Source: Escherichia phage ECO103 4-12-1. From it: a stretch of 64,000 bases of DNA. Positions 34,550 through 39,341 of the stretch are shown here, piece after piece (within the stretch, counting starts at the first letter, position 1; every line of letters starts with the position of its first letter). Both the position numbers and the translations under genes were made by a program. A model generated the notes under the pieces. It had not been told where the DNA came from, ran no database searches, and worked only from the letters and a program-made list of their open reading frames with translations. The stretch is taken from sequence record OR844650; one strand, 5' to 3'.

Positions 34550-34756
34550 TTACTTCCTATATATAAGCATTAACATATAGTAGTACTGATTATGCTGTAC
34601 ATTCTCTTTAATATTATAAGGGTCTATAGCAATCTCGGTACATCTGTTAAATGCATATCTATTAAATGCCAGTACTATTATAGATCTAATCCATGCTTGG
34701 TCAGTCGGTGGTAGTTTACTTATATAGTACTCTTTATAGTTTTTTATGTTCTGCAT
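34550..34756 (-). CDS. small protein, EFY..LIYRY family
   Basis: ORF track; N-term 'KEYYISKL', C-term 'MLMLIYRK'. Confidence 0.55.
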   Translation of the reverse strand: MQNIKNYKEYYISKLPPTDQAWIRSIIVLAFNRYAFNRCTEIAIDPYNIKENVQHNQYYYMLMLIYRK

Positions 34757-34767
34757 AGTATACCTTA

Positions 34768-34959
34768 TTATTTCAAAGTACCATATAGTACTCTTAATAG
34801 GAAGTAGTACGTATTAGAGATATCATTAGTAGTTAAAACAATCTTTGTACACATATTAAATTCGTATTGAGTCATTGCCAGGGGGATTAAATTGTTAACC
34901 CATGCTTGTTCGTTTTCTTTTAGTTTACTTATATAGAAATCTTTATGTTCTTTATTCAT
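34768..34959 (-). CDS. small protein, EFY..LIYRY family
   Basis: ORF track; 'MNKEHKDFYISKL'. Confidence 0.55.
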   Translation of the reverse strand: MNKEHKDFYISKLKENEQAWVNNLIPLAMTQYEFNMCTKIVLTTNDISNTYYFLLRVLYGTLK

Positions 34960-35161
34960 ATAGGAATAGTATACCTATGATGCCGGAGTACATATTAGTA
35001 CTGTTATTATTGTCGTTTGCGTTTAAAGTCATTTGAATACAATTATTGTAGCATACTCTGCCGAAATATGTATCAGTACTTAAAGGTGCTGTAGTCCTTA
35101 GAAACATTTGTTCTGTGGGGCTGAGGTGTTTGGAGTAGAATTCTTTATGTTCTTTATTCAT
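34952..35161 (-). CDS. small protein, EFY..LIYRY family
   Basis: ORF track; 'MNKEHKEFYSKHL'. Confidence 0.55.
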   Translation of the reverse strand: MNKEHKEFYSKHLSPTEQMFLRTTAPLSTDTYFGRVCYNNCIQMTLNANDNNNSTNMYSGIIGILFLYE

Positions 35162-35166
35162 ATTAG

Positions 35167-35352
35167 TTAGTGTCTGTATATAAGTAATAGTAAGAATACG
35201 TACTGCACCTGTTCATCTTTAGTATTGAGTACTGTACGTATTGCGTCATGGAACAAGAATATAGTACTTGGGTCATTAGAATTTAAGGGGTTTACGGGGA
35301 CGGCGTGTTTGTAGTTCCCTTTAACAAATTGTATATAGTATTCTCTATGCAT
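35167..35352 (-). CDS. small protein, EFY..LIYRY family
   Basis: ORF track; 'MHREYYIQF..LLLIYRH'. Confidence 0.55.
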   Translation of the reverse strand: MHREYYIQFVKGNYKHAVPVNPLNSNDPSTIFLFHDAIRTVLNTKDEQVQYVFLLLLIYRH

Positions 35353-35353
35353 A

Positions 35354-35542
35354 TCAGTACCTATATATTAGGGCGAGAATGTAGTACAGTTTATATGTAT
35401 TATAATCTGGGTTGATAGCACATAGTGTGTGGTAGTGGAATTGTTTGGTATTTTTCTTATCCTTGATATCTATTGGGTTTAGTGGTATAAGCATTTGGGA
35501 GTTTAGTTCCAGATGGTTTAAGTAGAATTCTTTGTTATTCAT
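35354..35542 (-). CDS. small protein, EFY..LIYRY family
   Basis: ORF track; 'MNNKEFYLNHL..LALIYRY'. Confidence 0.55.
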   Translation of the reverse strand: MNNKEFYLNHLELNSQMLIPLNPIDIKDKKNTKQFHYHTLCAINPDYNTYKLYYILALIYRY

Positions 35543-35741
35543 AGAAGAATATTAGTCCCATTACGCCTGAGTACTGAATATTTTTGTTATTGTTTTCTAA
35601 AGCTTCTAGAGTAATACGTATACAATTATTAAAGCAATCTCTGGCGTGTGGTGTATCTAAACGTAAAGGTGATACACTCCTTAGAAACATTTGTTCTGAT
35701 GCACTGAGGTGTTTGGTGTAAAATTCTTTCTGTTCGTTCAT
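35535..35741 (-). CDS. small protein, EFY..LIYRY family
   Basis: ORF track; 'MNEQKEFYTKHL'. Confidence 0.55.
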   Translation of the reverse strand: MNEQKEFYTKHLSASEQMFLRSVSPLRLDTPHARDCFNNCIRITLEALENNNKNIQYSGVMGLIFFYE

Positions 35742-35751
35742 ATTGGCCTCT

Positions 35752-35940
35752 TTAGTACACGAAAGCTAGGTACAGTGTATGATACAGTACTCGATGATAG
35801 CTATCAAAATCTAGTATACATGCTTTAGTGCACATAGTAAAGTACACTTTATCGTTTTGAGCATTGATACCGCGAGGTTTATCTAATAGATTAGTACTGA
35901 GGTACATTGGGAAATATTTTGTGTAGTATTCTTTATGCAT
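35752..35940 (-). CDS. small protein, EFY..LIYRY family
   Basis: ORF track 35752-35985; start moved to MHKEYYTKYF. Confidence 0.5.
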   Translation of the reverse strand: MHKEYYTKYFPMYLSTNLLDKPRGINAQNDKVYFTMCTKACILDFDSYHRVLYHTLYLAFVY

Positions 35941-35941
35941 A

Positions 35942-36124
35942 TTAGTACCTGAATATAAGTAGGATAGTGTTATATAATTGGTCATAGCTACTACTATTTT
36001 CTATACTGCGTTCTATGCAATTATTGAATCCCAGTACTGCCAAATCGTTATCCAGGGGGACTTTATATCTGGCGTAGTGTTCAAATATACTGGGGAGAAA
36101 TTGTGTGTAGTATTCTTTGTGCAT
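35942..36124 (-). CDS. small protein, EFY..LIYRY family
   Basis: ORF track; 'MHKEYYTQFL..LLIFRY'. Confidence 0.55.
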   Translation of the reverse strand: MHKEYYTQFLPSIFEHYARYKVPLDNDLAVLGFNNCIERSIENSSSYDQLYNTILLIFRY

Positions 36125-36125
36125 A

Positions 36126-36317
36126 TTAGTACCTATATATTAGTAAAAGGATGTGATACAGTACTCGATTATAGTCTTCAATATATATCGAGGATTTAGT
36201 GCACTGAATGAAGTAGTCTTTTTCGTAGTTTTTTTCTATACCCAATGGTTCTGTTGGTAGAAGGTGTTGGAGATACATTGGGAGTTTCTCTATGTAGTAT
36301 TCTTTGTGGTTATTCAT
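36126..36317 (-). CDS. small protein, EFY..LIYRY family
   Basis: ORF track; 'MNNHKEYYIEKL..LLLIYRY'. Confidence 0.55.
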   Translation of the reverse strand: MNNHKEYYIEKLPMYLQHLLPTEPLGIEKNYEKDYFIQCTKSSIYIEDYNRVLYHILLLIYRY

Positions 36318-37728: not shown

Positions 37729-37735
37729 GTCTACC

Positions 37736-37915
37736 TTAGATTGAGATTAGTTTAAGTACTTCTCTGTACGTGTACTTTTCGTTTTGTGCTTCTACTGTAC
37801 ACGAGAGTAGATAACGTTTTTTATCTCTTTTGTTCCCGACTGTGTAGTACCTTTGGAATTTATTATAGTTGTATCTATCTTTGTGCTGGAGGTTATAGAT
37901 ATAGAATTCTTGCAT
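37736..37915 (-). CDS. small protein, EYY..VLKLISx family (59 aa)
   Basis: own translation MQEFYIYNLQHKDRY...YREVLKLISI; not in ORF track. Confidence 0.5.
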   Translation of the reverse strand: MQEFYIYNLQHKDRYNYNKFQRYYTVGNKRDKKRYLLSCTVEAQNEKYTYREVLKLISI

Positions 37916-37923
37916 AGAGTACC

Positions 37924-38109
37924 TTAGATTGCTATCAGTTTGAGTACTTCAATATATGTGCGGTACTCTGCTTTAATTAAATTTGTACACACTGTAAGGG
38001 AATTTCTTTGTATAAGTTTATTGCCGCTTTTATACGCATTTCTCCACACATAGAGATGAGATCTTTCAGGCATAGATAGTTTATTTGTATAGTACTCAAA
38101 TGTATTCAT
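37924..38109 (-). CDS. small protein, EYY..VLKLISx family
   Basis: ORF track; 'MNTFEYYTNKL..YIEVLKLIAI'. Confidence 0.55.
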   Translation of the reverse strand: MNTFEYYTNKLSMPERSHLYVWRNAYKSGNKLIQRNSLTVCTNLIKAEYRTYIEVLKLIAI

Positions 38110-38117
38110 ATATTACC

Positions 38118-38300
38118 TCAAATAGAGATTAGTTTAAGTACTTCTCTGTATGTGTACTTTTCGTTTTGTGCATCTCTTGTGCTTGTATATAGGTATCCTC
38201 GACGATATTTGTTGCTCCCGTTCTTGTAGTTGAATTCGAACTTATTGTAGATGAATCTATCGCCAGGCTGTAATTTACTTAAGTACAATTCAATGCTCAT
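38118..38300 (-). CDS. small protein, EYY..VLKLISx family
   Basis: ORF track 38118-38321; start moved to MSIELYLSKL. Confidence 0.5.
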   Translation of the reverse strand: MSIELYLSKLQPGDRFIYNKFEFNYKNGSNKYRRGYLYTSTRDAQNEKYTYREVLKLISI

Positions 38301-38310
38301 AGTATTCTCT

Positions 38311-38496
38311 TTACATATCAATAAGTTTCAGTACTGCTCTGTACGTGTACTTAGTTGTTAGTACTTCTGTTATAGCAGCACTGAAGTAATGATGTTTGTC
38401 TCTTATACTGCCGCGTTTGTAGTACCACACATGGGAGTTGTGGGTGTACTTGTCCCTGTCGGATAGTTGTTGGTAGTAGTAGCTTATGTGATTCAT
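38311..38496 (-). CDS. small protein, EYY..VLKLISx family
   Basis: ORF track; 'MNHISYYYQQL..YRAVLKLIDM'. Confidence 0.55.
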   Translation of the reverse strand: MNHISYYYQQLSDRDKYTHNSHVWYYKRGSIRDKHHYFSAAITEVLTTKYTYRAVLKLIDM

Positions 38497-38697
38497 GGTA
38501 GTGTAATTAGCCTTACTATATTAAAGTACTCGGTCCCTGGTACACCTTGTAGAATATTATCAACTACATTTTCTTGGTGCAGGATTAATACATTCGGTGC
38601 GGTTCTTTTAAGGTTTTTTTAAAGTACTGTATTCTTGTTTAAGGATGAACTGTACATCTTTAGGGAGAATATCTAAGTAGTACTGGTGTATGTTCAT
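38497..38697 (-). pseudogene. frameshifted member of the EYY small-protein family
   Basis: N-part MNIHQYYLDILPKD.. stops after 37 aa; family-like C-part 'FNIVRLITLP' is in another frame. Confidence 0.35.
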
Positions 38698-38717
38698 AGT
38701 TTTCATATAGTACTCTT

Positions 38718-38903
38718 TTAGAACTTAAAGATGAGGTTCATGATAGATAAGTACTTAGTTTCAGGAAATTGATGTTCTATTGCATAACGTGTCTCCAGTC
38801 TGAAGTCAAATTTATAAAAGGGACTATTCATATCCATAGGTTCATTGGGAAATGAATCTCTGTATTGTTTGTGCAGCTTACTACAGTAGAATTCTTTATA
38901 CAT
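38718..38903 (-). CDS. small protein, EFY-family
   Basis: ORF track; 'MYKEFYCSKL..IMNLIFKF'. Confidence 0.55.
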   Translation of the reverse strand: MYKEFYCSKLHKQYRDSFPNEPMDMNSPFYKFDFRLETRYAIEHQFPETKYLSIMNLIFKF

Positions 38904-38904
38904 A

Positions 38905-39117
38905 TTAGTGCTCGATTAAAAGGGTTAGGATGTAATAGTATTGCATACTTTCTACCCCTTGTACAGCATTTCTTATTTTATTATTCCTGTACGAGTTCAA
39001 GAGTTTAGGACAATGTTTGAAGTTTATATAATTATTTTGTGTATACAGTAGGCTTTCTCGTAGACCTTTTGTTGGTAGTGCATCAATGTAGTACTGTTCA
39101 ATGTTCATAGTGTTCAT
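38905..39117 (-). CDS. small protein, EYY-family
   Basis: ORF track; 'MNTMNIEQYYIDAL..ILTLLIEH'. Confidence 0.55.
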   Translation of the reverse strand: MNTMNIEQYYIDALPTKGLRESLLYTQNNYINFKHCPKLLNSYRNNKIRNAVQGVESMQYYYILTLLIEH

Positions 39118-39341
39118 AGAGCTACCAGTACTAAGATTTTTGATAATTGTTTGTTTCTATCCCCGCAGATGTTGTTGTGTAAAATGCTCACTACAAGGGT
39201 ATCAAGTGCATTGTTCAGCATAAGGTTACATCCAGTACTGTTATGTGTTTTTAGCTCAATTAGCCACGAACAATCCGCGAGAAATTTCCCGTACTCTAGT
39301 TCATTTAGCGTATTAATGTAGTACTTAAGTGCATTTGTCAT
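39114..39341 (-). CDS. small protein, EYY-family (first gene of array)
   Basis: ORF track; 'MTNALKYYINTL..ILVLVAL'. Confidence 0.55.
   Translation of the reverse strand: MTNALKYYINTLNELEYGKFLADCSWLIELKTHNSTGCNLMLNNALDTLVVSILHNNICGDRNKQLSKILVLVAL

Follow-up and report, generated by a model that had tools for sequence, protein, structure and literature searches.

What do the small open reading frames (ORFs) packed in tandem on the minus strand at positions 34550-39341 of Escherichia phage ECO103 4-12-1 encode, and what might so many related products do for the phage? The array was analysed within a 64,000-nucleotide (nt) stretch of record OR844650, hereafter the window. Homology, coding constraint, conservation of the promoter and of ribosome-binding sites, a predicted fold, taxonomic restriction, copy-number variation, chimeric genes and a divergence faster than that of the flanks were observed, and the resulting genetic and structural description of the array is held with high confidence. 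The full reading, a multigene family of accessory, non-structural proteins that are made early and bind host targets, has about even chances of being right, its early timing, binding mode and host-directed role being inferred. The ~6 kb around the array were 99.0% identical to WPEC5 and 98.1% to Escherichia phage EC.P1, and the related records (n = 35) were all Escherichia or Salmonella jumbo phages of the 121Q/PBECO4 type, genus Asteriusvirus; judged by these matches, the source of the window is an Asteriusvirus jumbo coliphage.

The array comprised 22 consecutive minus-strand cistrons, from 39341 down to 34550: 20 intact small ORFs, one frameshifted copy and one large ORF of 219 amino acids (aa). 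With family-consistent ATG starts the small ORFs were 59-75 aa long (upstream in-frame ATGs account for lengths of 77 and 81 aa), and the distance between neighbours ranged from -8 to +11 nt. The series opened with the leader gene g01 (39114-39341, 75 aa), g02 (38905-39117, 70 aa), g03 (38718-38903, 61 aa) and the frameshifted copy, which is of the g02 type (38497-38706). It continued with the six genes of subfamily B (37352-38496, 59-62 aa), namely g04 (38311-38496), g05 (38118-38300), g06 (37924-38109), g07 (37736-37915), g08 (37540-37728) and g09 (37352-37531). Beyond the large ORF, g10 (36682-37341), it ended with eleven genes of subfamily A (34550-36689, 59-69 aa): g11 (36507-36689), g12 (36326-36505), g13 (36126-36317), g14 (35942-36124), g15 (35752-35940), g16 (35535-35741), g17 (35354-35542), g18 (35167-35352), g19 (34952-35161), g20 (34768-34959) and g21 (34550-34756).

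The original prediction, made without database searches, had counted about 22 small proteins of 50-77 aa spaced 0-12 nt apart; the array and its tight packing stood, while the number, lengths and spacing are corrected to those given above, and the 219-aa ORF, which had not been set apart, proved unrelated. The 59-aa ORFs that it had located at 36326-36505, 37352-37531 and 37736-37915 were present, and such copies are often unannotated in public records too. The frameshift that it had noticed was also recovered: a homopolymer of seven adenines (A7, at ~38614) replaces the A6 found in WPEC5, EC.P1, BF17 and EcMJ, where the ORF is intact at 70 aa, and this extra A makes the copy either a pseudogene or the product of a sequencing error. 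The remark that paralog expansions dominate held for the window, since paralogous ORFs fill half of it (32.7 of 64 kb), including a 24-member family at 7148-12905 and an array of RCC1-like genes at 39426-57706.

All-versus-all BLAST resolved two solid groups, subfamily A (the eleven genes of 34550-36689 plus g03 at 38718-38903, twelve genes counting g03) and subfamily B (the six genes of 37352-38496), the latter with pairwise expect (E) values of 1e-3 to 1e-19. Hidden Markov model (HMM) A gave E values of 3e-17 to 4e-28 for its eleven clustered members and 2.6e-10 for g03, and HMM B gave ~1e-29 to 1e-30 for its own. When the whole 64 kb were scanned in six frames, members scored E 1e-17 to 1e-30 and the best segment outside the array E 0.27; the family alignment and HMM search that had been proposed as a check thus put the homology far above chance. 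The consensus of the multiple alignment was M..KEYY...L......F..CT......Y...L.LI, with Tyr8 invariant, and subfamily B ended in ..Y.Y.EVLKLISI. Column entropy in the N-terminus, middle and C-terminus was 1.10, 2.32 and 1.98 bits in subfamily A and 1.33, 1.81 and 1.20 bits in subfamily B, lower at both ends than in the middle, as the conserved termini and variable middle described at first sight would have it. Subfamilies A and B were aligned end to end by hhalign over 53 columns (2-57 against 3-59; E 3.7e-5, probability 71%), the next-best matches of HMM A after its own members were two B genes (E 0.0065 and 0.058), and a joint A+B profile retrieved both kinds among 1.84 billion proteins; a single superfamily has moderate support from these profile comparisons.

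Three subfamilies had originally been proposed, among which A (34550-36689) and B (37352-38496) were solid and the third (38718-39341) was heterogeneous. The g02 type scored 9.8 bits against the family HMM, a value equalled by 2 of 300 shuffles, and g01 scored 2.9 bits, equalled by 13 of 300. In addition, g02 had a BLAST match to g21 (1e-5), g02-like proteins of the divergent phage JNE01 matched HMM A (E 8.8e-5), and a positional ortholog of g01 was found in all relatives. Given these weak leader-gene scores, the third group is a mixture, in which g03 belongs to A, g02 and the frameshifted copy are a type of their own, and g01 stands apart; there is modest support for g02 as a weak family member, and the membership of g01 is doubtful. 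Paralogs shared 15-50% protein identity (11-23% to g01, mostly below 50% inside subfamilies), and the best DNA repeats in the array were 60-82% identical, plus one 48-nt junction at 96%. Near-identical tandem copies, the signature of recent amplification, were absent from the array.

Ortholog dN/dS (the ratio of nonsynonymous to synonymous substitution rates) was 0.31-0.52 across seven relatives (dS up to 0.24). Pooled by region, it was 0.27 for the N-terminal 12 codons, 0.45 for the middle and 0.30 for the C-terminal 14 codons, values that indicate purifying selection in all regions, moderately less strict in the middle. A pooled dN/dS of 0.45 gives no support to positive selection there, a possibility that had been considered. 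Shine-Dalgarno-like motifs lay 4-16 nt upstream of 12 of the 22 starts but of only 3 among 80 other array ATGs (p = 1.6e-7), and in subfamily A the AGG motif was often placed within the last codons of the upstream gene (..YRY and stop, TAT AGG TAC TAA T ATG). ORF lengths were retained in ten relatives and in the divergent JNE01 clade. The low dN/dS (below 1), the enrichment of ribosome-binding sites, the retained ORF lengths and the confident fold prediction mark the array ORFs as genuine protein-coding genes; a tandem array of small-protein paralogs, as originally predicted, is upheld by the homology, the purifying selection, the ribosome-binding sites and the predicted fold.

The AlphaFold2 model of g13, built on a 49-sequence family alignment, reached a predicted local distance difference test score (pLDDT) of 91.6 and a predicted template modelling score of 0.76, with helices at residues 3-10, 14-17, 30-45 and 49-62 and a loop at 18-29. 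For the family, it confidently predicts a small helical bundle. The bundle had no structural neighbour, and DNA-binding folds, helix-turn-helix and zinc ribbon among them, were not retrieved. Conserved residues appear to fall in the helices, and the most variable columns in the loop and adjoining helix ends; the conserved N-terminal KE[Y/F]Y..L, the mid-helix F..C and the C-terminal Y..L.LI most likely pack as a hydrophobic core. The proteins contained 0-3 cysteines, with a single conserved Cys position, and no paired CxxC/CxxH metal ligands. Members g04-g07 of subfamily B were strongly basic (isoelectric point, pI, 9.4-9.6; net charge +4 to +5.6), most members of subfamily A were neutral or acidic, and tyrosine and glycine made up 10.7% and 1.9% of array residues, respectively. 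PADLOC, a library that models defence and not anti-defence proteins, gave no meaningful match (best E 0.029).

Upstream of g01, the promoter scan identified a sigma-70-type promoter, TTGACA-17 nt-TACTAT (39367-39395, minus strand), with an A-rich tract upstream and AGTACTG in its spacer. It matched 10 of 12 consensus positions and, at 39395-39367, was the only strong promoter-like site of the array, promoter-like sites in 33000-40000 being fewer than in shuffles. Both the promoter and the AAGGAG ribosome-binding site of g01 (39350-39355, minus strand) were invariant in all 11 aligned phages. A hairpin scan of 33000-40000 showed no terminator-like hairpins inside the array. At its 3' side lay a structured non-coding flank (34215-34487, minus strand; fold z -5.2) with a terminator-like hairpin at its end (34227-34243), in which blocks of ~110 nt (34375-34487) and ~46 nt (34215-34262) had hardly changed even in JNE01; 33500-34550, immediately downstream of the array, contained no minus-strand ORF of at least 30 aa. 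The minus strand at 12.9-33.9 kb, in the neighbouring small-gene region, carried ~20 promoters of the same class as that of the array, near-perfect for sigma-70 and preceded by A-rich tracts (TTGACA-N17-TATAAT, often ...CAGTACTGTATAAT). The phage group encodes a sigma factor and no RNA polymerase (Sharanji paper, PMC11895373; PMC7247149), and RpoD-like promoters of the related phage CBB are clustered in front of short hypothetical ORFs, suspected by its authors to be early host-take-over genes (PMC5259590). Because of the lone strong sigma-70 promoter, the lack of internal terminators, the phage sigma factor without RNA polymerase and the analogy with CBB, the array is probably one early, host-polymerase-dependent operon. 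No transcriptome of any Asteriusvirus was found in the searchable literature.

The family was found by tblastn (g13 and g07 as queries) in 34 of 50,697 phage records (30 Escherichia and 4 Salmonella). An exhaustive HMMER search of 1.84 billion representatives returned 34 clusters of 41-69 aa, nearly all of them full-length at 59-69 aa, one false positive aside, and a word-indexed search of 5.8 billion proteins returned 40 clusters. On the evidence of these searches, the family is restricted to the genus Asteriusvirus. A 531-aa protein with seven matches (P0089), considered as a possible fused array, was rejected as a low-complexity false positive.

Array length, the comparison first suggested for related phages, ranged from 17 genes in 121Q to 23 in BF17 and EcMJ; subfamily B had six copies here, as in JP4 and SHEFM2K, but three in 121Q, G17 and phAPEC6. 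Two chimeric genes were recognised: in P0008, residues 1-20 correspond to g11 (95%) and the remainder to g13 (85-90%), and in P0013 g11 is joined to g17. DNA-level repeats were confined to the gene junctions (3' codons, ribosome-binding site and 5' codons) at a spacing of 184-196 nt, and the junctions are obvious candidates for substrates of unequal crossing-over. In JNE01, the RCC1 array is followed, divergently, by a g01-like gene, two g02-like genes, a B, an A and a B gene, a 224-aa g10 homolog and nine A genes. The array proteins were 25-58% identical to those of JNE01, and only short patches of array DNA could be aligned (69-82%). The flanks had 86-96% nucleotide identity (88.7% over 1,865 nt downstream, starting exactly at 34487, and ~86% on the promoter side), and an RCC1 paralog 2.5 kb from the array had 98.5% protein identity. 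The array thus has the appearance of a hypervariable cassette between conserved anchors.

The embedded protein g10 was basic (pI 9.3), overlapped or abutted its neighbours and kept its position throughout the genus; its 30 N-terminal residues were almost invariant. It matched phrog_29152, of unknown function, its homologs were confined to the genus, and its slot between g09 and g11 was kept in JNE01 (38% identity). Domain searches detected no toxin, nuclease or other domain in g10, and its AlphaFold model was unusable (pLDDT 38). The possibility that g10 is a family member with an insertion (N-terminal KQYLKHF..L, C-terminal LITYISNYV) was rejected on an hhalign probability of 0.1% and a shuffle-level score.

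Divergently adjacent to the small-gene array, on the plus strand, lay ~15 RCC1-like (WD40_RLD) genes (39426-57706). Most of them were preceded by an AGTACT-palindrome hairpin terminator, GCCAGTACT-nn-AGTACTGGC-Tn, and by a promoter without a -35 element, AAATATAGTATAAT-N-ATAAAGGAGG. The first RCC1-like gene most likely starts at 39444 and not at 39426, because the ATG at 39426 falls within a TATAATG -10 element. Salmonella phage Munch carried ~15 RCC1-like genes and no small-family member in the syntenic slot, and RCC1-like genes were also present in Klebsiella, Yersinia, Cronobacter and Erwinia phages, among which g13 and g07 as tblastn queries detected no small-family member. In the virion mass spectrometry of phAPEC6 (Table 1 of that study), the RCC1-like gp549 and gp551 are listed and gp540c-548c are unlisted, although one 4.7-kDa protein was detected (PMC7247149). 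On this virion proteome, the array proteins would be non-structural.

A further layer of constraint was apparent in the DNA itself. In the window, GTAC occurred 621 times against 209 expected, AGTACT 268 times against 21.6 (12-fold) and CAGTACTG 64 times against 0.7. GTAC density peaked in the array (18.4 per kb compared to 9.7 per kb in the window), and the array exceeded its synonymous-codon shuffles in GTAC (81 against 47.9 ± 4.0) and in AGTACT (34 against 9.6 ± 2.5), in all three frames. (C)AGTACT(G) was densest at 34550-39341 and 7000-34000. AGTACT is built into early-promoter spacers (CAGTACTGTATAAT) and terminator stems (GCCAGTACTnnAGTACTGGC), and part of the apparent protein conservation coincides with GTAC/AGTACT motifs and ribosome-binding sites in EVLKLI, encoded by GAAGTACTTAAACT, and in YRY with its stop, encoded by ..AGGTACTAA. 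Because the motifs are under selection within the genes, the conservation of the array is not to be taken as purely protein-level. The excess was genome- and clade-wide, being found also in JNE01, 121Q, JP4 and Munch, and the array is therefore not explained by the motif; individual GTAC/AGTACT sites were conserved only marginally above other k-mers. A literature search found no study of AGTACT in these phages.

Public records already contain the sequences. The same genes appear as 121Q gp249-265, WPEC5 CDS0073-0093 and PBECO4 p282; in related records every array gene is a 'hypothetical protein' and many copies are unannotated. Among PHROGs v4 families, phrog_11711, of unknown function, matched g13 (E 7e-28), g21 (3e-19), g03 (2e-15) and g19 (1e-9) over ~1-62 of 62 positions. 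Only subfamily A is covered by it, since g07 (subfamily B), g01 and g02 had no match in PHROGs, and a Pfam scan gave no match for the family proteins. The array shares its genes with phrog_11711 (subfamily A at E 1e-9 to 7e-28) and with the Asteriusvirus 'hypothetical proteins', but for subfamily B and for the g01 and g02 types neither PHROG nor Pfam has a family. The tandem arrays of 121Q (PMC5646251) and phAPEC6 (PMC7247149) receive a one-sentence mention each, and the literature search found no paper describing the family, its operon structure, fold or dynamics. What was known would thus amount to the sequences and one PHROG, with family, operon structure, fold and dynamics undescribed.

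The full reading can be put as a sequence of steps. Host RNA polymerase with sigma-70 would initiate at the consensus promoter just upstream of g01, transcribe the 22 tightly packed, translationally coupled cistrons of 34550-39395 as a single unit and stop in the conserved structured region ~300 nt beyond the last stop codon. Twenty cistrons would yield soluble helical bundles of ~60 aa with a common core and paralog-specific loop and helix surfaces. The array would have originated by old tandem duplications, and unequal homologous recombination at the conserved junctions would have produced the 17-23 copies and the chimeric genes. From the first minutes of infection the products would serve as non-structural accessory factors, each paralog binding a different host macromolecule in host take-over or defence neutralisation, and the paralogs would be individually dispensable yet individually maintained. 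In its boldest form, which is possible but rather doubtful, the array would supply ~20 diversified inhibitors on an undescribed mini helical-bundle scaffold, each directed against a different host defence or factor, with the repertoire shuffled by junction recombination, as a phage counterpart of the multigene families known from large eukaryotic DNA viruses.

Several points weigh against this reading. 'Early' is read from the consensus promoter alone, and virion mass spectrometry can miss very small proteins, which bears on the non-structural assignment. No region had a pooled ortholog dN/dS above 1, so an ongoing arms race would be conjectural, and the divergence from JNE01 could reflect recombinational replacement of the cassette instead of fast substitution. 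The strong basicity of subfamily B also suits nucleic-acid binding. Moreover, selection for GTAC/AGTACT acts on the nucleic acid, so that some of the 'conserved' sequence, and the 10.7% tyrosine, may reflect something other than protein function.

Five rival explanations were ranked, and are taken here in that order. That the family consists of small nucleic-acid-binding proteins, either early-to-middle regulators or architectural proteins that possibly read AGTACT/GTAC, is unlikely. The pI of 9.4-9.6 and net charge of +4 to +5.6 of g04-g07, the AGTACT beside the -10 in the spacer of the array promoter and of many early promoters, and the 12-fold over-representation of this motif are what it would lead one to expect, and the ~35-copy zinc-ribbon expansion of Bacillus phage G has been read as transcription factors or structural DNA-binding proteins (Iyer et al., PMC7824862). 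However, subfamily A is mostly neutral or acidic, no DNA-binding fold such as a helix-turn-helix or zinc ribbon came up, only one Cys is conserved, and ~20 diverged paralogs are not needed for a single motif. A similarly low probability is given to a largely neutral filler, i.e. tandem duplicates, individually devoid of a specific function, tolerated because an oversized headful capsid has room to spare (the ratchet model of Hua et al.). Purifying selection across all regions speaks against it, as do the positional orthologs, ORF lengths, fold-determining residues, promoter and ribosome-binding site kept in JNE01 at 25-58% identity, and paralogs that are old and distinct (15-50% identity) and not decaying copies. 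It draws on the gain and loss of members among phages, the copy frameshifted here and the fairly relaxed dN/dS of 0.3-0.5, and on the proposal of Hua et al., who cite a 121Q array, that jumbo genomes grow by tandem duplication (PMC5646251), with which the phAPEC6 paper agrees (PMC7247149).

The remaining three were considered less probable again. It is improbable that the small proteins serve the neighbouring RCC1-like virion proteins, with one or more of them per beta-propeller paralog, in chaperoning, in assembly or as specificity adaptors, even though the two arrays are both multi-copy and divergently adjacent in every genome examined, JNE01 included, and gp549 and gp551 are virion components. 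One sigma-70 operon stands opposite an RCC1 array with AGTACT-stem terminators and -35-less promoters (AAATATAGTATAAT), RCC1-like genes occur without the small family in Munch and, as far as tblastn queries with g13 and g07 reach, in Klebsiella, Yersinia, Cronobacter and Erwinia phages, and the histories are decoupled (RCC1 98.5% against array 25-58% identity to JNE01); unlike promoter classes, unlike divergence and RCC1 genes without the family thus argue against the small proteins as dedicated RCC1 partners. A pairing with g10, in which the small proteins would act as its immunity-like or antitoxin-like counterparts as in polymorphic-toxin immunity arrays, is very improbable: g10 is basic, without an assigned function, lies inside the array where it overlaps or abuts its neighbours, and has its position between g09 and g11 kept in JNE01, but it has no detected toxin, nuclease or other domain and no usable AlphaFold model, one copy of g10 would be flanked on either side by small proteins, ~20 in all and from two subfamilies, and such a system has no known precedent in an early operon of a strictly lytic phage. 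Least credible is a region acting mainly as nucleic acid, as a GTAC/AGTACT field or structured RNA, with incidental ORFs. Although GTAC is densest here (18.4 against 9.7 per kb), the GTAC/AGTACT excess outlasts synonymous-codon shuffling and DNA-level conservation is found only at gene junctions, the dN/dS below 1, the enriched ribosome-binding sites, the conserved ORF lengths and the confident predicted fold all indicate proteins; in addition, single GTAC sites are barely better conserved than other k-mers, and the motif excess is genome- and clade-wide and not array-specific.

Comparison with known systems places the array as an uncharacterised case of lineage-specific paralog expansion in the plastic early region of a large phage. 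T4-type early regions hold small, mostly non-essential ORFs behind sigma-70 promoters. The array resembles these regions and the suspected early region of jumbo phage CBB (PMC5259590) in its strong host-type promoter, many short hypothetical ORFs, variable content and presumed role in take-over or adaptation, whereas the genes there are mostly unrelated and here ~20 paralogous cistrons share a single scaffold. With the zinc-ribbon expansion of phage G (PMC7824862) and the array of '>30 very similar genes' reported in 121Q (PMC5646251) it shares tandem small-protein expansion in a jumbo phage and a guessed function. Unlike the phage G proteins, the array family has no zinc-binding motif, is predicted to be all-helical and consists of highly diverged paralogs. 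In African swine fever virus, MGF110/360 genes, and in poxviruses, 'gene accordions', have roles in host range or immune evasion. Both are similar to the array in their tandem paralogs, isolate-dependent copy number and location in variable genome regions, but poxvirus accordions are made of recent near-identical copies, whereas the array copies are old (DNA 60-82%, protein 15-50%). Phage anti-CRISPR and anti-restriction loci usually combine unrelated small proteins with a helix-turn-helix regulator. Small size, fast evolution, presumed early timing, a narrow taxonomic range and novel folds are shared with the array proteins; the difference is that the array is one of paralogs, for which no known anti-defence homolog and no PADLOC-related match were found.

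Further observations concern the surroundings of the array. The conservation of its downstream flank reached 32646, and 34200-34560 folded at z = -5.2. This flank contained 12 tandem copies of TAGCCGTC (33341-33439) and repeated GTAATCA/ATGATTACAT boxes (34160-34183 and 34389-34426), and the cumulative GC skew turned at ~34 kb; 32646-34550 may contain a replication origin, a non-coding RNA locus or both. The array itself had C>G and A>T on its coding (minus) strand, a GC skew opposite to that of the other minus-strand genes at 1-33 kb, which fits either a replication-driven switch at ~34 kb or a G-poor codon and amino-acid composition. A candidate small RNA of ~160 nt without ORF (33690-33882, minus strand; fold z -3.8) had a near-consensus promoter TTGACT-16-TATAAT (33882-33855) and a terminator hairpin formed by two copies of CAGTACTG (33725-33692). 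It had no match in Rfam, and the window as a whole yielded no hit in tRNA or Rfam scans. Several of the promoters at 12.9-33.9 kb had a conserved GGGGAGAA-tag-TTCTCCCC hairpin ~10 nt downstream, and the promoter module TTGACTCCGGTCAGTCCCTTTGCTATTAT recurred at 23943, 20469, 17202 and 14450, which suggests segmental duplications of ~3 kb. The separate tandem family at 7148-12905 (minus strand, 24 members, 66-104 aa) was unrelated to the array family by HMM; it is presumably the 'LGTNYQE array' of the original prediction and probably corresponds to what Hua et al. describe in 121Q as '>30 very similar genes'. GCGC was absent from the 64 kb (~63 expected) and from every related locus compared, including sister-genus Munch. 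Ten of the 64 six-base palindromes (AGCGCT, AGGCCT, CCATGG, CCCGGG, CCGCGG, CGATCG, CGCGCG, CGGCCG, CGTACG and CTCGAG) also had zero occurrences, each being expected 2-7 times. Such absences suggest that sites are very strongly avoided, the pressure coming either from a restriction enzyme or from a nuclease of the phage itself.

More than 80% of the genes in these 350-kb phages, a group proposed for therapy, have no known function, and the public annotation of the array locus is inconsistent, with many genes overlooked. The array offers a compact and tractable block in this respect, with one promoter and ~20 small soluble proteins that have a confidently predicted fold and lack relatives elsewhere. 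If its products are host-directed, they would provide a panel of new inhibitors of Escherichia coli and Salmonella functions or defence systems, and a natural example of a phage expanding and reshuffling a repertoire of binding proteins. If they are dispensable and inert, the array would instead support the growth of jumbo genomes by tolerated tandem duplication.

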